A stretch of 64,000 nucleotides of DNA from a virus. The notes beneath the pieces were generated by a model. It was given only the letters and a program-made list of their open reading frames with translations. It made no database searches and was not told where the DNA came from. Location of the stretch: IMG/VR virus record IMGVR_UViG_3300049436_000052, positions 270,327 through 334,326 of that record, one strand, 5' to 3'. The position numbers were made by a program, and so were the translations under genes. Each line of letters starts with the position of its first letter. The stretch's first letter is position 1. Below, piece after piece: positions 28,453 to 60,405 of this stretch.

Positions 28453-29637
28453 TTAATGTGATTTAAAGTTATACAAGGGTTTTAATGTGTCTATAATGTC
28501 AACTGTATCAACAATCATAGATTTTATTTCTTCAATAGATTTATATGCTTGAGGCGCTTCATCTAAGGTTTCTTTAACAACAGATGTACTATAAATTCCT
28601 TTCATCGAACCAATGAAATCATCCATTTTAATATTTTCTTTAGCCTTACTTCTACTAAATAATCTTCCAGCACCATGAGGAGCAGAATAATTCCAATCTT
28701 CATTACCCTTTCCAACACATAACAAAGAACCATCTCTCATATTAATTGGAATTAATAAAATTTCGTTTTTTTCGGCACTCACTGCACCTTTTCTTAAAAT
28801 CATTCGATTTAAATCAATATAATTGTGAATTGTTTCAAATTTTTCATCTATTATCCAACTCATTTCACTAATAATGATCTTGGCCATTGTTTCTCGATTA
28901 AGACTTGCAAATTTTTGAAGAACTGCCATATCATTCATATAATCATTGAAATCGTCTCCTGATAAATATGCAAGTTCTTTATCAGTAACAGGTTTTTTTA
29001 ACTTTTTCAATTCTTCATTAATTTCCCTTTCTCTACCATTTTTTCTTAATTCTTTAATGAGATTTTGCTTAACTTTTGACATTTCGTTAACATTTTGAAA
29101 TGCTTTGTCTTGATAATATTTACACATGTCGCCACCCAATTTTCTACTACCTGAGTGAATTATAAGATAAATATAATCGTAATTATCTGACTTTGAGACC
29201 TCTATGAAGTGATTGCCTCCACCGAGACTACCAATTGACAATATTGCTCTTTCTAAATCAACATGTTTTGCACATCTCAGGTTAGAAAAATCAAACTTAG
29301 CTTGTGAATTTTTATGAATGTTGAATCCATGAGGAACTTTTGTTTTGATAATGCGATCAAGTTTTTCGAAATTAATTTCCTGATTTTTTATTATAACTGT
29401 AAGCATTCCACAACTTACGTCTACCCCTACTAGGTTTGGAGTTATTTTATCTGTAATTGTCATAGTAGTTCCAACAGTACAACCCTTACCTAAATGAGAA
29501 TCTGGCATTATTCTAATTTTTGCATCTTGATATGCTTCAAAATTAGCCATTCTTTTCACTTGTTCATATGTTTCATAATCAAAAGTTTCAGCAAAAACCT
29601 TTGTTTCAACGCCTTTAACATTTTTTATTATCTGCAT
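28453..29637 (-). CDS. rtcB: RNA ligase RtcB
   Basis: MPDSHLGKG, VGVDVSCG, SLGGGNHFIE, HSGSR, HNY, RKGA, SAPHGAGR, DEAPQAYK. Confidence 0.95.
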   Translation of the reverse strand: MQIIKNVKGVETKVFAETFDYETYEQVKRMANFEAYQDAKIRIMPDSHLGKGCTVGTTMTITDKITPNLVGVDVSCGMLTVIIKNQEINFEKLDRIIKTKVPHGFNIHKNSQAKFDFSNLRCAKHVDLERAILSIGSLGGGNHFIEVSKSDNYDYIYLIIHSGSRKLGGDMCKYYQDKAFQNVNEMSKVKQNLIKELRKNGREREINEELKKLKKPVTDKELAYLSGDDFNDYMNDMAVLQKFASLNRETMAKIIISEMSWIIDEKFETIHNYIDLNRMILRKGAVSAEKNEILLIPINMRDGSLLCVGKGNEDWNYSAPHGAGRLFSRSKAKENIKMDDFIGSMKGIYSTSVVKETLDEAPQAYKSIEEIKSMIVDTVDIIDTLKPLYNFKSH

Positions 29638-30259
29638 AAATATTAAATATTATTTGACAACTTCTTCTTCAACTAAAGATTCTAACCATCTTTCTTTAAG
29701 TTTATTACAATTATGTTTGTTTCCTTTACAAACCAGTAGACCATTCTTAGATAAAACCCATTTTATAAACATATTCCAAAGAGAATCATTTTTTTCTTCA
29801 CACGTCTCGATACCATTATTATCTTTTTGATAGCGATCACAATAGTAATTATGTTTTTTTGTTGTCATTTCTATAATTTAATAGCGTAATATAATCCATC
29901 AAGTTCGTTACGTAATGTTTGAAAAAAATCAATTTCAAGTTTCATCCAAATAATATAATCAACATAATTATCTATTATATTTTTTTCAATTTTCATGAAA
30001 TCTTCTTCAAAAATTTCACAGGTATCTAAACTATTCTTTAAATTAAACATCTAATAACATCTTCTTAAAATTCAATAATCTGATTAAGTTCAATAAATTC
30101 ATTTTGTAGTATTTCAAATAAATTTACTTCACAAATATCGATTATAAGACAACAACCAAAAATGGTTATTGCCCTATTTTCGATTCTCATTAATTCTTTA
30201 TGATAATACTGAAAACGTTTATTATCGTTATTAAAATTATAATCAAATAATGTATTCAT

Positions 30260-30562
30260 TTAATACAAATTTTCAGAAATTAATATAGAATCCTCACCAT
30301 TTTCAGAAGCTTCCAAACCATATCTTATTTGATTATTTGCTTTTGCTATGTTCCAAGCTTCTTTCCTATCAACATAACGGTTTTCAGAAGTCAAAAATCC
30401 TTGTTTATCTCGATCTGGTAAAACTGGATTAGAAACTAAATTTTTTAATATTGTGTAACAATCATCGTGTCTTCTGCCACAAATTATAGTTCCATTGTAA
30501 TCAATGGCCGCACAAAGAATTATTTCATTAAATGGTTTTACTAACAAATCTTCGTTTTTCAT
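30260..30562 (-). CDS. Conserved phage hypothetical protein (paralog of 24402..24692)
   Basis: Shared ILCAAI / QGFLT / VDR.EA / SENLY motifs. Confidence 0.65.
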   Translation of the reverse strand: MKNEDLLVKPFNEIILCAAIDYNGTIICGRRHDDCYTILKNLVSNPVLPDRDKQGFLTSENRYVDRKEAWNIAKANNQIRYGLEASENGEDSILISENLY

Positions 30563-30765
30563 AGTCGTTTATTCTTCGTTATAAAATATTTTCCCACAAA
30601 CACAACCTATTTTAATTTTTTTATAGTAGAGATGAATTCCAAAAAATGTTACAGATTGTCTTATAACAAACCCACAATGATCTGTATCTAATCTAATTAG
30701 ATAATAAATTAAATGAAACCATCTTTTAATGTATGCCAATGTTATTTTCATTATAAATATTTTTA

Positions 30766-31278
30766 TTATTCATCCAACAAAGTTTCCAATTCTTTAACCA
30801 TATCATCATAAGGTTCATAAACATTATTAAACAATGATTTTATGAAATGTTTATTCTCTGATTTATAAACATCTTTCATCTTTGAATTTGTATCTACAGA
30901 ATACCTTACATTTGCAAGCCTATCACATAATTTTACAAATTTTGCATATGGGGTATTTTTTATCCCTTCATAATATTTATCGTTTGCTCGTTCTTTTCTA
31001 GTTTTACCTTTTTCATTTGTAAGTGCATAAACAATATCAGCCACAGAAGTGTTTGATATTTTTCTAATGTCATTATATGTTAATCTACAATCTTCAATTG
31101 TATCATGTAACCAACAAGCATCAATTACAATATCTTGGTAATGTTCAGGAATAATATTAAGATATTTCTTTGCATATTCAACAGTCATCATTAAATGTGT
31201 AGAATAGGACTTGCCATCATAAAGATGATTGGTGCTTTGATGTGCTTCAATTGCAAAATCAATAATATTTGAATTCAT
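30766..31278 (-). CDS. HD-domain hydrolase, RelA/SpoT-hydrolase (SAH/Mesh1)-like
   Basis: FA..AH, Y..H, WLHDTIED, V.ALT, VKLCDRLAN. Confidence 0.75.
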   Translation of the reverse strand: MNSNIIDFAIEAHQSTNHLYDGKSYSTHLMMTVEYAKKYLNIIPEHYQDIVIDACWLHDTIEDCRLTYNDIRKISNTSVADIVYALTNEKGKTRKERANDKYYEGIKNTPYAKFVKLCDRLANVRYSVDTNSKMKDVYKSENKHFIKSLFNNVYEPYDDMVKELETLLDE

Positions 31279-31666: not shown

Positions 31667-32158
31667 TTAATTAAGTTTAAAAGGTGAAACTAATACTCTT
31701 GGTTCACAATATACTGGTCGTGGTTCGTTGGTAGTTGGGTCAATCAAAAGCAACCATGTACCTTCTGCATTTGAAGGCATAAATAAACCATTGGGATCTG
31801 CTTGTGCAATAACATGTCCACCACCATCGGATATTTTTTCTGGATTTGTGTATTGTGTTGCATAAGGTAATCCAAACCCAATACATTTTCCTAAAAATAC
31901 GGGTTTACCTGTCATTTCTGGTACAATATACGCATAGCAAACTAAGTTTTCTTGATCACGTAATTCAAGTATCATTTTCATCATTTTTCGTTCCTGAAAA
32001 TTTTTAATAGCAGGCATACCTGTTTGGGCATTTGCTTCTTGCATCATCATTTCTTGTTTTTGTCTTAATTTTTGGTCACTAGTTTGTTCACAACCCAAAA
32101 TTGACATTAATAGAACCGTACTTAACATAATTCCAATTACATAAAAAATCTTTTTCAT
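31667..32158 (-). CDS. Putative lipoprotein
   Basis: Hydrophobic signal peptide ending ILGC; QADPNGLF..EGTW. Confidence 0.55.
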   Translation of the reverse strand: MKKIFYVIGIMLSTVLLMSILGCEQTSDQKLRQKQEMMMQEANAQTGMPAIKNFQERKMMKMILELRDQENLVCYAYIVPEMTGKPVFLGKCIGFGLPYATQYTNPEKISDGGGHVIAQADPNGLFMPSNAEGTWLLLIDPTTNEPRPVYCEPRVLVSPFKLN

Positions 32159-32358
32159 TTTTGTTTAAATTTAAAGTGAATAAATAATTTGTTTAAAATA
32201 TATTTGGCTTCATACCATACTATACGAAATTTTTTGAAAAATGTTTTAATTAAATGCAAAAATAGTAAAAAATTTTGTTAAAACAATTATATTTTAACAA
32301 AGTTTAAGAAATGATATGTTAAATATTGTGAATAAATAACGATAATGGTTAATTATTG

Positions 32359-32443
32359 CGGTAAGTGTTAGGATCGAACTAACGCAGCTTTTACACCCTA
32401 TTTGTTTAGCAAACAAACCTCTTAACCACTTGAGTAACTTACC
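32359..32443 (-). tRNA. tRNA-Ser(GCU)
   Basis: Acceptor GGTAAGT/ACTTACC, anticodon arm TTTGT-TTGCTAA-ACAAA, long variable arm, G73. Confidence 0.9.
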
Positions 32444-32449
32444 TAAATG

Positions 32450-32521
32450 TACCCCCAGATGAAATCGAATCACCATCAAAACGGTCGTAACGTTCCATTT
32501 TATCCATTAAACTATGGGGGC
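32450..32521 (-). tRNA. tRNA-Arg(ACG)
   Basis: GCCCCCA/TGGGGGT acceptor, loop TTACGAC, TTCGA T-loop. Confidence 0.9.
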
Positions 32522-32534
32522 ATTGATTATTAAG

Positions 32535-32605
32535 TCTTTCCAGATGGAGTCGAACCACCATTATAAATTTAGAAAATTTAGGTTTTTCCATTAAACTATG
32601 AAAAG
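32535..32605 (-). tRNA. tRNA-Arg(UCU)
   Basis: CTTTTCA/TGGAAAG acceptor, TAAAT-TTTCTAA-ATTTA. Confidence 0.85.
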
Positions 32606-32613
32606 ATGTTTTG

Positions 32614-32703
32614 TTACGGGAATGGGATTAAAACCCACGTTACACGTCTCTTTCGAGCGACATGACTTATGAGGCCACCGAGAAATCACTCCTCTATCCC
32701 ACA
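32614..32703 (-). tRNA. tRNA with CAU anticodon (Met, initiator-like, or Ile2) and a 23-nt variable arm
   Basis: TGTGGGA/TCCCGTA acceptor, GTGGC-CTCATAA-GTCAT, variable arm with GAAA tetraloop. Confidence 0.75.
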
Positions 32704-32710
32704 ATATGGG

Positions 32711-32784
32711 CTGTGCTGGAGAGACTCGGACTCCTAACTTACTGGTTAACAGCCAGTTACTCTAATCAATTGAGTTACAGCACA
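32711..32784 (-). tRNA. tRNA-Asn(GUU)
   Basis: TGTGCTG/CAGCACA, ACTGG-CTGTTAA-CCAGT, G73. Confidence 0.88.
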
Positions 32785-32797
32785 ATATAAATATATT

Positions 32798-33508
32798 TCA
32801 TTTTTTTCTATTTCTGGATGAATTTTTATTCCTTGCTCTAAAATTAATTGTCATTGAATGACAATTAGGACATAAAATTTCTAAATTATTTATATTACAA
32901 TTTTTAGCATCGCCATCAATATGATTAATTTCAGTTAAACTTTTTCCATCAATAGGATGTTTTTCATCCCACCCACATTTACTACATTTAGAACCTCTAA
33001 TCTCTTTTAAATATTTTCTAATAATAGTTTTTAATTGTATTGCCTTTCCATGCCATCCAACAGTTTCACCATTTAACCATCTTTCTATTGCATTTTTTTT
33101 AATACTAATATAAGTACATGTTTTAGAACAGTATATATTTTGTTTTTTTATTAGACGTTTTCCACAAATAAGACAAAATTCGTTTAATCTTTTTCTTTTA
33201 TTTTTTTTCACATAATTCACATTATTATATTTTGCAGAACAAGAATGTGAACAAAACAAATTAATCGACCCATTATGCTTAATATCATTTGCTTTTCGTT
33301 TAAACAATTTTCCACATGTTTTACAAGTACATTCACAAATTTTAACTGAAATGTCATTAATGTCTTTATATTTTAATCCAAGACTATATAATTTTAATTT
33401 AACAGATTTGCTTGTCCTATTTAAAATTTCGCCAATTTCGTTATATTTTTTATGTTTGTTAAATAATTCTATCAATAAATTCAATTCATCTTTATCCCAT
33501 TTTTTCAT
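32798..33508 (-). CDS. HNH homing endonuclease inserted in a tRNA cluster
   Basis: CSKCG, EINHIDGD..N....NLEILCPNCH; zinc-binding CxxC / FCS..C repeats. Confidence 0.85.
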   Translation of the reverse strand: MKKWDKDELNLLIELFNKHKKYNEIGEILNRTSKSVKLKLYSLGLKYKDINDISVKICECTCKTCGKLFKRKANDIKHNGSINLFCSHSCSAKYNNVNYVKKNKRKRLNEFCLICGKRLIKKQNIYCSKTCTYISIKKNAIERWLNGETVGWHGKAIQLKTIIRKYLKEIRGSKCSKCGWDEKHPIDGKSLTEINHIDGDAKNCNINNLEILCPNCHSMTINFRARNKNSSRNRKK

Positions 33509-33574
33509 ATCAATAACTTTTATTATAAATACTCAAATTGAGAAAATGATCGGAATCGAACAGATATTATTTTA

Positions 33575-33647
33575 AGGAGACATCTGGTAATGATCCAGAA
33601 TACATAGATCTTCAATCTGTTATATAAACCATCTTTGCCATATCTTC
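33575..33647 (-). tRNA. tRNA-Phe(GAA), degenerate
   Basis: Loop TTGAAGA and T arm TCTGG-ATCATTA-CCAGA; mismatches in acceptor, D and anticodon stems. Confidence 0.6.
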
Positions 33648-33668
33648 TTAAATTACTAAAACTATTTG

Positions 33669-33741
33669 TTGTCTTGGGAGAGCATGATTCTCCAACCTTC
33701 TCCGTATCAGGGAGTTACTCTACCAATTGAGCTACAAGACA
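33669..33741 (-). tRNA. tRNA-Ile(GAU)
   Basis: TGTCTTG/CAAGACA, CTCC-CTGATAC-GGAG. Confidence 0.85.
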
Positions 33742-33746
33742 ATAAG

Positions 33747-33829
33747 AGATGGGTATTCGATTTGAACGAATGTGTGCACATGCAAACTGTTTTGCAGACA
33801 GTCCCTATCAACCACTCAGGCAACCCATC
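33747..33829 (-). tRNA. tRNA-Cys(GCA) with long variable arm
   Basis: GATGGGT/ACCCATC, ACTGT-CTGCAAA-ACAGT, U73, 14-nt variable region. Confidence 0.85.
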
Positions 33830-33842
33830 AATATTTTATTCA

Positions 33843-33860
33843 CAATACGTCAAAGAACAT
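33843..33860 (-). promoter_or_regulatory. boxA-like antitermination element ATGTTCTTTGACGTATTG
   Basis: Resembles rrn boxA; second copy at 58793-58810. Confidence 0.5.
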
Positions 33861-33865
33861 AAAAC

Positions 33866-33898
33866 AAAAAAACCCGATTCATTTCTGGATCGGGTTGT
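33866..33898 (-). terminator. Attenuator terminator upstream of the 8-tRNA cluster
   Basis: AACCCGATCC-AGAAAT-GAATCGGGTT then TTTTT. Confidence 0.85.
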
Positions 33899-33929
33899 AG
33901 GAATAATGATTATCTATTCTTCTTTTTGC

Positions 33930-34058
33930 TTATATCATTATATATAACAACCCAATACCTATGTCAATACTATTTCTACGGAAGAAACATGACATAAAAT
34001 TTCCATTGCGATTTATTCTCGATATGGACGTTTGAGTTATTGTTATAATAGATTTCAT
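33930..34058 (-). CDS. Leader peptide MKSIITITQTSISRINRNGNFMSCFFRRNSIDIGIGLLYIMI (attenuator of the Cys/Ile/Phe/Asn/Met/Arg/Ser tRNA cluster)
   Basis: Hand translation; 20 of residues 11-31 match the cluster's amino acids; ATTGGGTTGT pairs with the terminator 5' arm. Confidence 0.85.
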   Translation of the reverse strand: MKSIITITQTSISRINRNGNFMSCFFRRNSIDIGIGLLYIMI

Positions 34059-34100
34059 TTTCGAATTCTTTACTTTTTTTTAAATTTTCGCTATTTCATT

Positions 34101-34121
34101 ACTAAATACTTTGCAAAGATA
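34101..34121 (-). promoter_or_regulatory. Tandem promoter motifs (Bacteroidota -7 TATCTTTG and phage AGTATTTA)
   Basis: TATCTTTGCAAAGTATTTAGT 43-63 nt upstream of the leader ATG. Confidence 0.6.
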
Positions 34122-35985
34122 AAAAAGATTTAAATATGATTAAAATATTTTGCAATTATTTTTCACCATCAAACACAAATGACACAAAAAAAAACAACAA
34201 ACCCTATGATTATAAGCCAAATACTCCACCAATTAAATTCTTTATCTTTCACAAGATAAATTAAAAAACTTACAACTGCCCAAATTGCAGATACGTTGAT
34301 TGTCAAAATAGACAAAATTTTAATTAATAGTCCCATAATTTTACATTTATTTGTTATATTTTTCTTTAATTTTAACATATGTTAAAAATTTTATGTTTTT
34401 TTATTCATAATTTCTCTAAGATTGCGTATTAGATTAGTAAAAACATTAACAGAAATCCAAGTACTTTTAAACGCACCCACATAATCACTATCCCACGTCT
34501 CACTACGATTATGTCCTGCTTGAGATTCATCAATAGCATCATTAATTGCTTTTTTTAGTTTTTTTTCTTCTTCTTTAGTCATAATATTAATATTTAAAAA
34601 TTAAAAATAACTCTATTTTCTTTACTATAATAATCTCCATTAAATTCCAATGTAGAATTTTCACTATTTTCTTCAACTAAACAATACAACCATCTAAGTT
34701 TACATAATTGATTGATTGTATTTGTTATTTTATTCCAATTTGGTTTATAAATATCACTTGCCGTATCAATATCGTCTAATAATTTATATTGATGTATTAT
34801 AATATCCAATAATGTTTTAATATTAATTCCTTTACGTTTAGACATTTCTTCATTAAATGTATTATCAAACAATTGAGACAAATTTTTATCATGAATATGA
34901 ATTTCTTTAGATTTTGCATGACAATAATTCAAATAAATATCATTTTTTCCTACATAATCTTCTGTTAAATCTTCAATTACTGACAACACATCAGCAAGTT
35001 TATCAACAACTTCTAGCATTTTAAATTTATCATTTCTCATTTTATATGTATTTAAAATTTTATTAAATCATATTTCTTCTAATCTTTTTAGAGATTTTAT
35101 TCTTAATTGTTCTATTTCTTCAAAACTTTGTCCTTCATAAGAATTTGATTGATTATAGCAATATCCATATCTTATTTCAGATAAAATTTTGCCAAGATGT
35201 TCTCCACCATCTTTCATTACGCCAATTTGGGCATTACCTATTTTAAATAGAAGATTTCTTAGAATTTCGAGTTCTTCTTTTTCGCTTAATTTTTCTTTTT
35301 TCATTATTTTTTTCATATTATTGGTAGTATTACTACTATTATTAGTTAAATTTTAATGAAATAAATCTATTAATTCATTATTCTTCATCTTTTATAAATA
35401 AATTATATTTAACTAATATGTTATATGGTAATGGAAATTCATCTTTCATTGTAGGATGAATAAGTTGTTTATTAGTTTCACCATCTTGGTATGCAAAAAA
35501 AATATCTGGTGACATTCCTGTTGCTGGATATGTTTTTATTCGTTTTATAACAACTTTAGCTGTTGATTTATCACCAAAAATTAATTTTCCTTTATTTCCT
35601 TCTTTTAAATCTAAACTCATGTTATTTATTATTTGTTAAATATTCCAAAACAATTTTCATTTTATTTTCATCATAAACAATGATTATACAACAACCATAT
35701 TCATCAATGATTGCATATCCATTCTTTGTAATGATTTTCTTATCATCCAAAATTATTAATGGAGATATTTTTTCGACTGTTGTTTTCACAGTTTCTTTTA
35801 TCTTTAAACGTTTTCATTTATTTTATTATGAATATCAATGTCATAATAAATTTTCTTATCAAATGCAATTGAACTCATGATAGTAAATGAGCCATTAAAA
35901 TATGACGTTCCTAAATTTTTATAAAGCTTTTTTGCTTCTTTTAAAAGAATTAAAAAATCAATGTAATTTATAGTTTTATTTTTCA

Positions 35986-36690
35986 TCACAGTTCTTTAAT
36001 TTCATTAATTCCTAAAATAGTAAAATCTATCCCCAATATATTTTCGAAATGATATTCATGATAATGTCCTGAGAACCATTTTTTTAAAGGATGATTATTA
36101 TTTATTAAATATTGATAGATCATATCAAATACTTTTCTGCTTTGTTTACAATATTCAATGACATCAGAATCTGTTAAATTATAATTCAATATTGGATATG
36201 TAATTGTTGGCATTCCATGAGTAAGAACATAATCAATTTTATAAGTATCCGATATTTCTTTTAATTTAATTTCATCAAAAACTGGCAATTCATTTTTCCA
36301 ATAATCTTTTCCTTCGGTTCTTAACTTATAATCAATACTTGCTTCACCACCAACGCATAGAACATTTCCTTTAATTGTTTCAATAACAGAATAATCTGAT
36401 AATAATTTTAAATTAGATAAATTCCATAAATCGTTAAAATATAGAGGATTGTCATGATTCCCTCTTATAGCGAGTAAGGTATTATTATTTTCTTTTAGTT
36501 CATCATTCAACCAATTTAAAATATTGATATAATACTTTTCTTTATGAAAACCTACACCGAAATCCCCAAGTTGAATAAATAATGAATCTTTAAACTCAAA
36601 TCTTTTGTGAAGTAAAAAATTTAAAGTTTTAAACTCACCGTGTATATCACCAATTAGATAAATATCTGTATTTGGATTGTTTAAAAACAT
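35986..36690 (-). CDS. Calcineurin-like metallophosphoesterase
   Basis: GDIHG, GDFG, GNHD, THG, GHYH. Confidence 0.9.
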   Translation of the reverse strand: MFLNNPNTDIYLIGDIHGEFKTLNFLLHKRFEFKDSLFIQLGDFGVGFHKEKYYINILNWLNDELKENNNTLLAIRGNHDNPLYFNDLWNLSNLKLLSDYSVIETIKGNVLCVGGEASIDYKLRTEGKDYWKNELPVFDEIKLKEISDTYKIDYVLTHGMPTITYPILNYNLTDSDVIEYCKQSRKVFDMIYQYLINNNHPLKKWFSGHYHEYHFENILGIDFTILGINEIKEL

Positions 36691-48137: not shown

Positions 48138-48171
48138 AAAAAAACCCGAAACTTATTCAGAATCGGGTTTT
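48138..48171 (-). terminator. Attenuator terminator upstream of tRNA-Lys/Tyr
   Basis: AAAACCCGA...TCGGGTTTTTTT. Confidence 0.8.
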
Positions 48172-48198
48172 AACTTAATAACCTAAAATTTAAAATTT

Positions 48199-48282
48199 TT
48201 AGCACATAACTTTCCCAATTCTTACTAAGATTTGTTTCTTATAAGATTTTGAGTAATAATATGTGCTGCTTGTCAAAAACAT
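48199..48282 (-). CDS. Leader peptide MFLTSSTYYYSKSYKKQILVRIGKVMC (attenuator of the Lys/Tyr tRNA cluster)
   Basis: Hand translation; YYYSKSYKK run; AGAATTGGG pairs with terminator arm CCCGATTCT; TATCTTTG at 48313-48320. Confidence 0.87.
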   Translation of the reverse strand: MFLTSSTYYYSKSYKKQILVRIGKVMC

Positions 48283-58783: not shown

Positions 58784-58817
58784 TTATTTTAAAAATATTT
58801 CAAAGAACATTAAATTG

Positions 58818-58902: not shown

Positions 58903-58934
58903 AAAAAACCCCAACAAATTCATGTCGGGGTTTT
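58903..58934 (-). terminator. Attenuator terminator upstream of tRNA-Leu/Asp/Glu
   Basis: AAAACCCCGACA-TGAATT-TGTTGGGGTTTTTT. Confidence 0.85.
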
Positions 58935-58961
58935 AGATAAAATTATACAATAATTATATAT

Positions 58962-59054
58962 TTATTTCCCGACAAAACATAACAATTCCTCATCAGCAGC
59001 CCATAGAAGAGTATCTGCTAAAGATAAAGTCAATATGTCGAGTAAATTTTTCAT
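58962..59054 (-). CDS. Leader peptide MKNLLDILTLSLADTLLWAADEELLCFVGK (attenuator of the Leu/Asp/Glu tRNA cluster)
   Basis: Hand translation; 9 Leu, 3 Asp and 2 Glu of 30 residues; TGTCGGG pairs with terminator arm CCCGACA. Confidence 0.82.
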   Translation of the reverse strand: MKNLLDILTLSLADTLLWAADEELLCFVGK

Positions 59055-59248
59055 GTTAAACTGTTGTTCCTACCATTTTCATAAAAAGTAATTTTAATTT
59101 TTTCATAAATACTTTGTTTTTTCAAAAACTTCCCCAAATCATAAGAAATGAGGAAGTTTTTTTTAAAAATAACCTTATAATTAAAACTTTCAAAATGAAA
59201 AGCAAAGATAGATATATTTTCTTAATCTACCAAATATTTTAACATTAT

Positions 59249-59707: not shown

Positions 59708-59971
59708 AGTTTATAATAATTTTTTTAATAATAAGATTTTCAATGTTTTGCCATTGTTCTTAAACGATAATTCAACTTTAGAATTTTCACGAAATTTTAT
59801 ATATGATCTTCCCAATTCATCAATAACTTCAACAGTATTTACATCATTAAGGAAGATTGTATCGTTTTTCATCTCAACCAATTCTTCGTTCGATTTTTTT
59901 AAATTCATTTAAAAAACATTTTATATAAATACTATAAAAAGTTATTAATTAAACGTATTATTTAAAAATAG

Positions 59972-60054
59972 TTGCTCTGGCAGAATTCAAATCTGCACGC
60001 CTTACGGCACAAAAGTCAAAGTTTTGCGAGTCTAATCAATTCCTCCACAGAGCA
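59972..60054 (-). tRNA. tRNA-Gln(UUG) with a Leu-like long variable arm
   Basis: TGCTCTG/CAGAGCA, CAAAA-CTTTGAC-TTTTG, variable TGCCGTAAGGCGT. Confidence 0.78.
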
Positions 60055-60261: not shown

Positions 60262-60298
60262 AAAAAACCCCATTCAATTTTTATCTTGAATGGGGTTT
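60262..60298 (-). terminator. Attenuator terminator upstream of tRNA-Pro/His/Gln
   Basis: AAACCCCATTCAA-GATAAAAA-TTGAATGGGGTTTTTT. Confidence 0.88.
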
Positions 60299-60321
60299 GT
60301 GATAAAACCTAAAATCATTTT

Positions 60322-60405
60322 TTAAACATAGATTTCCCATTCAACATTTTGTGGATGTTGTGGTTGGGGATGCTGAACGCACAATATGTTTAAAACATTT
60401 TTCAT
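60322..60405 (-). CDS. Leader peptide MKNVLNILCVQHPQPQHPQNVEWEIYV (attenuator of the Pro/His/Gln tRNA cluster)
   Basis: Hand translation; 9 consecutive Q/H/P codons; TTGAATGGG pairs with terminator arm CCCATTCAA; TAAATTTG at 60423-60430. Confidence 0.9.
   Translation of the reverse strand: MKNVLNILCVQHPQPQHPQNVEWEIYV

Follow-up and report, generated by a model that had tools for sequence, protein, structure and literature searches.

The DNA considered here, referred to below as the window, is a stretch of 64,000 nucleotides (nt) forming the final 64 kilobases (kb) of the 334,326-base-pair (bp) virus record IMGVR_UViG_3300049436_000052, with a G+C content of about 25% and with genes mainly on the minus strand. 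On this strand a cluster of transfer RNA (tRNA) genes is preceded by a short open reading frame (ORF) and an intrinsic terminator, and we consider that this arrangement, named unit A, is probably a ribosome-mediated transcription attenuator of the trp type, which would tie transcription of the tRNA operon to how fast the codons read by its own tRNAs are decoded. An initial annotation of the window had proposed a multivalent leader attenuator in front of this cluster, and the proposal is supported by sister units elsewhere in the genome, by units in four relatives, by covariation of the pairing regions and by synonymous codon changes in the leader. In fact, the architecture, the match in composition, the conservation and the covariation of the RNA regions numbered 2, 3 and 4 can be read directly in the compared sequences. 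In unit A the promoter, the ORF, the alternative pairing, the terminator and the tRNAs all occur within 300 nt, and the control elements are the following:

34114-34121, minus strand: putative promoter -7 box (TA, two free bases, TTTG), found by reading the sequence
33930-34058, minus strand: leader ORF, 42 codons plus stop, with homologues in four other phage records
34032-34043, minus strand: predicted region 1, codons 6-9, which would pair with region 2 until region 3 is made; its partner codons differ among genomes
33966-34019, minus strand: densest sensor stretch, codons 14-31, with 15 of 18 codons read by cluster anticodons (ATG counted)
33947-33959, minus strand: region 2, the antiterminator strand within codons 33-38, from duplex energy and compensatory changes
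33889-33898, minus strand: region 3, the 5' arm of the terminator, common to the antiterminator and terminator pairings
33864-33896, minus strand: intrinsic terminator of the attenuator, with an 8-bp stem, a 10-nt loop and a T-run
33849-33858, minus strand: boxA-like element downstream of the terminator and ahead of the first tRNA, with a similar element at this place in all five A-type units compared

The leader carries the first line of evidence. A minus-strand ORF of 42 codons and a stop does lie at 34058-33930 as had been claimed, and the reported makeup of its residues 11 to 31 was recovered in full: 20 of these 21 residues are Cys, Ile, Phe, Asn, Met, Arg or Ser, the exception being Gly19, and all of the codons listed are found (AGA twice, CGC, CGT, AGT, TGT, TTT, TTC twice, AAT four times and ATG). 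Over the whole peptide the seven amino acids of the cluster account for 29 of 41 residues, where 14.8 would be expected (binomial p = 7e-6). One might suppose that this is chance, and that one of the ordinary short ORFs of an A+T-rich genome merely stands ahead of a terminator, since Ile, Asn, Phe and Ser are common at 25% G+C and the amino-acid set was picked after looking. Such an explanation is hardly credible, because a 21-residue window with at least 20 residues of the seven-amino-acid set occurs in just 2 of the 1652 ORFs of at least 25 codons in a six-frame reading of the 334-kb genome, leader A being one of the two, and because the same design returns in three sister units and four related genomes with a covarying pairing.

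The second line of evidence is the RNA itself. The stem of terminator A is G+C-rich, pairing 33896-33889 with 33878-33871; it is followed by seven T, has an energy of -11.7 kcal/mol and lies 33 nt past the stop codon of the leader. A simple scan missed it, because loops were limited there to 8 nt and the loop here has 10 nt. A pairing of 10 bp that would compete with this stem had been claimed from the letters, and it is present between 33956-33947 and 33898-33889, over 10 positions with one G-U; RNAduplex lengthens this 2:3 pairing to 33959-33947, at -17.1 kcal/mol, an energy equalled by none of 500 shuffles, as against -11.6 kcal/mol for the 3:4 pairing. When ribosome footprints were masked and the rest was folded at equilibrium, a procedure informative for unit A only, the terminator probability did not exceed 0.1 when the A site was placed at codons 3-17 or 26-29, rose to 0.8-0.9 from codon 31 onward, and was 0.71 without a ribosome; the corresponding measure for pairing of the 5' arm is noisy, as it also counts other partners. 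Rfam matches to the PyrG leader, OmrA-B and SdsR over the terminator are far under their thresholds, and we set them aside as a chance likeness to a hairpin with a T-run. As for the promoter, the -7 box and the next 12 or so bases are kept in all five A-type units, and a box of this form, which we take to be of the Bacteroidota type, is seen upstream of all the units described here.

Unit A is not alone in its genome. The tRNAs were called by ARAGORN at default and relaxed settings and by Rfam (cut-off 29 bits); 14 are found genome-wide by default ARAGORN, 13 of them inside four clusters, and the total for the phage is 16, with tRNA-Pro, tRNA-Tyr and tRNA-Phe detected only with the relaxed threshold or by Rfam. 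A search of the phage genome with leader region A brought up a second copy of the terminator upstream of tRNA-Lys, and an attenuator-like unit is in fact present at every one of the four clusters, with a shared layout of promoter, short ORF rich in the amino acids of its own cluster, antiterminator, terminator and tRNAs. Besides unit A, which serves the Cys/Ile/Phe/Asn/CAU/Arg/Ser cluster, these are unit B (Lys/Tyr), unit C (Pro/His/Gln) and unit D (Leu/Asp/Glu):

48143-48282, minus strand: unit B, leader 48282-48199 and terminator 48169-48143, then tRNA-Lys(UUU) and tRNA-Tyr(GUA)
60266-60405, minus strand: unit C, leader 60405-60322 and terminator 60297-60266, then tRNA-Pro(UGG), tRNA-His(GUG) and tRNA-Gln(UUG)
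58907-59054, minus strand: unit D, leader 59054-58962 and terminator 58932-58907, then tRNA-Leu(UAG), tRNA-Asp(GUC) and tRNA-Glu(UUC)

Leader B has four Tyr and four Lys codons, leader C a run of nine consecutive Gln, His and Pro codons, and leader D is rich in Leu, Asp and Glu. The enrichment of the four leaders A to D for their own clusters gives p = 7e-6, 0.03, 6.5e-5 and 1.4e-3 (Fisher combined 1e-10), while none of the off-diagonal pairs is enriched when the four leaders are set against the four clusters. Moreover, in units B, C and D the distance from the T-run to the first tRNA is 12-16 nt, which leaves no room for a promoter, so that transcripts of these tRNAs must pass the terminator. 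Unit D has a peculiarity in this genome only, as a further terminator-like hairpin (about 59159-59128) and a second small ORF lie between its promoter and its leader (59055-59215); in the relatives the promoter of unit D leads directly to the leader.

The comparison was extended to five genomes, namely this record (G000) and the giant-phage records G001, G006, G007 and G010, the last three of which were read across their tRNA regions. G001, the closest relative by RtcB, is a 357-kb record with about 40% G+C at the sampled loci and some 65 tRNAs; its tRNA blocks follow the same order of amino-acid groups, and a homologous leader and terminator stand before each of the four, each leader matching its own block. 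All five genomes, whose loci range from about 25 to 40% G+C, share a set of exactly four units, arranged as C, D, B, A, and 20 of the 20 leaders (five genomes by four groups) are enriched in their own tRNA group (chi-square 395, 9 degrees of freedom), though the genomes are related and the 20 leaders are not 20 independent events. An intrinsic terminator is found in every one of the 20 units. For B-type units the leader pattern could be followed further, to 17 IMG/VR loci, all of which have leader and terminator and then Lys and Tyr tRNAs, one of them with an added Leu tRNA. Other routes led less far: the profile of leader A matched G001 alone in IMG/VR; with the lipoprotein-like ORF at 31667-32158 (71 loci) and RtcB (80 loci) as guides, the tRNAs met were rare or belonged to unrelated phages without such units; two other neighbour proteins returned no relatives; and no cultured relative was found, as tblastn of leaders A, D and B against GenBank phages gave no match and blastn gave tRNA and HNH matches only.

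Within the 20 units, regions 2, 3 and 4 were aligned by script on their CCC core, since MAFFT had misaligned region 2 of the A-type units. Region 3 of the A-type units varies at positions +2 to +4 after the core, and regions 2 and 4 follow it with double-sided changes in four of the five genomes; the peptide residue at the covarying site shifts among Ile, Ser and Thr while the pairing is preserved. The unit's own terminator arm is the best partner in four of the five A-type units, which is matched by 2 of 120 permutations, and for all 20 units the preference for the own arm is matched by none of 20000 permutations. The B-type units are nearly invariant and uninformative in this respect. In every case region 2 falls within the final third of the ORF and stops 1-26 nt short of the ORF end, stop codon included, and an upstream pairing of region 2 is predicted in all 20 units (mean probability 0.53-0.98), with partner codons that vary between genomes in the A type.

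These observations also bear on the view that the short ORFs and terminators are independent small genes for peptides or small RNAs, which the terminators would do no more than close, with the tRNAs being transcribed from unrecognised promoters or by leak-through and the match in composition being left over from common descent. Every unit does have its own promoter and terminator, giant phages commonly have polymerases of their own, and in units B, C and D the terminator wins at equilibrium, all of which would suit such genes. However, independent genes give no account of leaders that match only their own tRNA set in five genomes, of an ORF strand that covaries with a terminator arm while the peptide changes, or of the short gap between T-run and tRNA in three units, and no Pfam family matches the leaders; we thus hold this view to be quite unlikely.

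Whether the leader is translated is addressed by its coding signal. In all 20 units there is an ATG start and a frame open to near region 2, most leaders begin Met-Lys, and between G000 and G001 synonymous codons differ at 23 of 60 conserved leader residues, as is expected for a translated frame. A T-box-like unit that senses tRNA directly, by codon-anticodon-like pairing and with no translation, would draw on the finding that in units B and C region 2 is predicted to pair, as long as region 3 has not yet been transcribed, with the very run of regulatory codons, so that cognate triplets stand together in region 1 of these units. Such direct sensing is very unlikely in our judgement, because no T-box or other leader family is matched at E-values up to 1 (for the T-box model, neither at the gathering threshold nor at E up to 1 in 32300-34200), because the ATG, the open frame and a stop near region 2 are constant in the 20 units with synonymous changes in between, and because no conserved platform for the acceptor end of a tRNA is seen.

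From these sequences we infer that the leader is translated, that a stalled ribosome sets the switch and that a physiological signal is read in this manner. Herein transcription would start from the promoter near 34114-34121, and the 42-codon leader would be translated behind the moving RNA polymerase. When decoding is slow, the ribosome would be held on cognate codons, mainly codons 3-29 and most densely 14-31, with region 2 left free; free region 2 (33959-33947) would pair with region 3 (33898-33889), the terminator would be blocked, and the polymerase would continue into the boxA-like element and the tRNAs. When decoding is fast, the ribosome would cross region 2 to the stop codon, the 3:4 terminator would form and the transcript would end at about 33864. 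If there is no translation at all, region 1 is predicted to hold region 2, so that the default would be off. Since the products are the very tRNAs that read the sensor codons, the circuit would be a negative feedback on decoding capacity, with supply following demand.

The boxA-like element directly behind terminator A may recruit Nus factors and keep the polymerase processive on an untranslated tRNA transcript, by analogy with the boxA/Nus antitermination of ribosomal RNA operons, to which there is a resemblance only, the element here being in tRNA operons. An internal promoter at 33858-33849 was also considered and dropped as the less likely interpretation, the element being kept directly behind the terminator in the five A units. 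In the relatives the boxA-like elements at the matching place are in loci L185, L211, L213 and L216, and a further one lies in the operon of unit D between tRNA-Leu and tRNA-Asp (58800-58808).

Several points nevertheless weigh against an attenuator of this kind, and some of them concern the tRNA operon of unit A, whose features are as follows:

33746-33829, minus strand: tRNA-Cys(GCA) with a long variable arm (ARAGORN; Rfam 51.6 bits)
33668-33741, minus strand: tRNA-Ile(GAU) (ARAGORN, Rfam)
33574-33648, minus strand: weak candidate for tRNA-Phe(GAA) (relaxed ARAGORN only; Rfam 21.6 bits against the cut-off of 29)
32798-33508, minus strand: ORF with a Myb-like DNA-binding domain and an HNH motif (domain matches)
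32707-32785, minus strand: tRNA-Asn(GUU) (ARAGORN, Rfam)
32613-32703, minus strand: 91-nt tRNA with a CAU anticodon and a long variable arm, which may be Met, Ile2 or another species (ARAGORN; Rfam 35.3 bits)
32534-32605, minus strand: tRNA-Arg(UCU) (ARAGORN, Rfam)
32449-32521, minus strand: tRNA-Arg(ACG) (ARAGORN, Rfam)
32358-32443, minus strand: tRNA-Ser(GCU) (ARAGORN, Rfam)
32267-32304, minus strand: A+T-rich terminator-like hairpin with a T-run, which would close the operon (-9.5 kcal/mol)

The cluster had been counted as one of eight tRNAs, of which seven stand at the default settings of ARAGORN and in Rfam while the eighth, tRNA-Phe, stays below threshold. The claim that the leader senses seven amino acids holds at the amino-acid level only; at the codon level the match is looser, and the Thr, Gly, TCN-Ser and ATA parts of the leader are unmatched. 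Cluster anticodons read 18 of the 41 codons of leader A (p = 0.02), a count that would become 23 of 41 with ATA decoded by the CAU tRNA; tRNA-Ser(GCU) serves one of the five Ser codons, the other four being TCN; and the genome lacks a tRNA for seven ATA, three Thr and three Gly codons. In leader D the cognate codons are 6 of 29 (p = 0.23). The HNH ORF interrupts cluster A into three and five tRNAs, and it may bring its own promoter for the five distal ones; giant phages may also have polymerases and promoters that go unrecognised here. As for the folding, equilibrium calculations yield the terminator at any ribosome position in units B, C and D, so that only a kinetic switch would work there. 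The stop codon of leader A comes 13 nt after the end of region 2, and a ribosome paused on it leaves region 2 uncovered when its footprint is modelled simply; the off state would therefore need transit over codons 31-41 or steric exclusion.

The unmatched codons of leader A may be understood from the relatives. In the larger ones the four tRNA groups jointly cover all twenty amino acids, and the A operon of the relatives holds tRNAs for Thr, Gly and UCN-Ser and an AUA-reading Ile tRNA, so that the unmatched codons appear to be left over from an ancestral operon of larger size, and the phage of the window to be a reduced form. The leaders have partly tracked the loss of tRNAs. For example, the Val tRNAs have been lost in this genome, and its leader D has one Val against five to six in the relatives with Val tRNAs; likewise leader A of this genome, whose operon is without Thr or Gly tRNA, has the fewest Thr and shares the fewest Gly.

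The nature of the signal is a further matter. It could be a shortage of cognate charged tRNA, arising from a mismatch between host supply and phage codon use or from cleavage of host tRNAs. The identical attenuator could also respond to another signal, amino-acid starvation or a general slowing of translation, with the tRNA operons being part of a starvation or late-infection programme. Any leader-peptide attenuator reads the supply of charged cognate tRNA, so that sequence alone cannot separate these signals, and an HD_4 domain protein is encoded 3 kb downstream. However, extra tRNA does not relieve amino-acid starvation, and leaders and tRNAs that fall so strictly into four matched groups fit a feedback on the tRNAs themselves, so we regard a starvation signal as unlikely. 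The tRNA operon A is flanked by genes for an RtcB RNA ligase, the HD_4 domain protein and a calcineurin-like phosphoesterase (metallophosphatase), at 28453-31278 and 35986-36690, RtcB being 4 kb downstream. HD_4 is the family or fold of (p)ppGpp hydrolases, and these neighbours suggest a module for tRNA repair and stress signalling next to the tRNA genes.

Besides the attenuator, the tRNA genes themselves show some unusual features. The relatives of the HNH ORF are annotated as HNH endonucleases in other giant phages, and it is probably a mobile homing endonuclease. In bacteria a long variable arm is normally restricted to Leu, Ser and Tyr tRNAs; here such arms are seen on tRNA-Cys(GCA) (33746-33829) and tRNA-Gln(UUG) (59971-60054), of 84 nt each. 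Long-arm Cys and Gln tRNAs recur in G001 (L185:5819-5900 and L184:3498-3584), the Cys one being 95% identical over the first 38 nt, so that these arms are conserved features and not decay. The 91-nt CAU tRNA has two wobble pairs in its acceptor stem and is closest, at 66% identity, to an 88-nt long-arm CAU tRNA beside tRNA-Ser(GCU) in G007. The site next to tRNA-Asn holds a UAU-anticodon Ile tRNA in three relatives and a 74-nt CAU tRNA in one. The suggestion that the CAU tRNA is Ile2 finds no support in this, its nearest kin being the long-arm CAU tRNA of G007 and not the AUA-reading Ile tRNA of the relatives.

Two features were noted in the related loci. The arrays of G001, G006, G007 and G010 end with a tRNA of anticodon CUA, an amber suppressor labelled Pyl by ARAGORN (ends of L185, L211, L214 and L217), and late in infection TAG may be translated as a sense codon in these relatives; the genome of the window has no tRNA with this anticodon. 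In several B-type loci (L192, L194, L196, L197 and L205-L207) the terminator is separated from the first tRNA, some 100 nt on, by a motif of about 20 nt, repeated twice, and a further ATG, which may be a second control element or a promoter.

Compared with known systems, the mechanism proposed for unit A is classical. The enterobacterial leader attenuators trpL, hisL, leuL, pheL, thrL and ilvGMEDA likewise have a short leader rich in regulatory codons in which the position of the ribosome decides, and four RNA regions with alternative 1:2, 2:3 and 3:4 pairings ending in a terminator before the regulated genes. Unlike in these, region 2 is inside the ORF here and not after its stop codon, the element belongs to a phage with a Bacteroidota-like host type, and the regulated genes are tRNA genes and not biosynthetic enzymes, with the loop acting back on decoding capacity; this lies outside the classical scope of biosynthesis or synthetase genes. 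Moreover, the thr and ilv leaders sense two or three amino acids, whereas leader A would address seven or eight families. The pheM leader of the E. coli pheST operon, a case of leader-peptide attenuation of an aminoacyl-tRNA synthetase operon, is alike in attenuating a translation component that serves the sensed codons, but it concerns a protein-coding operon, one amino acid and a cellular genome. T-box riboswitches share with unit A a terminator/antiterminator switch that responds to the state of tRNA and controls genes of the matching amino-acid family; they differ in binding uncharged tRNA directly without translation, whereas the unit here has a conserved open frame. The tRNA regions of phages T4 and T5 resemble the present one as phage-borne sets adjoining tRNA repair genes, here RtcB. 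Phage tRNA clusters serve as a supplement or in counter-defence, and some of their tRNAs escape host anticodon nucleases.

As far as we could establish, leader-peptide attenuation has been described only for genes of amino-acid synthesis or tRNA charging. Our full-text literature search gave no report of tRNA genes, whether of phages or of cells, being controlled by a leader peptide, and nothing on an attenuator-like leader of the E. coli tRNA-Phe genes. What is new in unit A is thus, on this search, the kind of gene that is regulated and how many amino-acid families are sensed.

Taking the four units together, we tentatively suggest, as an idea that could well prove wrong, that this giant Bacteroidota-type phage lineage runs its tRNAs as a regulon of four operons, each with a codon-matched leader-peptide attenuator and, in the larger relatives, with leaders that jointly span all twenty amino acids, which would sense decoding per codon family and replace only those tRNAs that run short, including those cut by host defence. 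If so, it would be the first attenuation system in which the output is the sensed molecule itself. The units are about 250 nt long and modular; they are easily tested and possibly useful as codon-specific translation sensors. If the attenuator of unit A is real, nature would have in it a sensor of decoding capacity that takes up to eight inputs; it would show by what means large phages control their tRNA sets, and it would join phage tRNAs, tRNA repair by RtcB and the tRNA-targeting defences of the host in one testable circuit.

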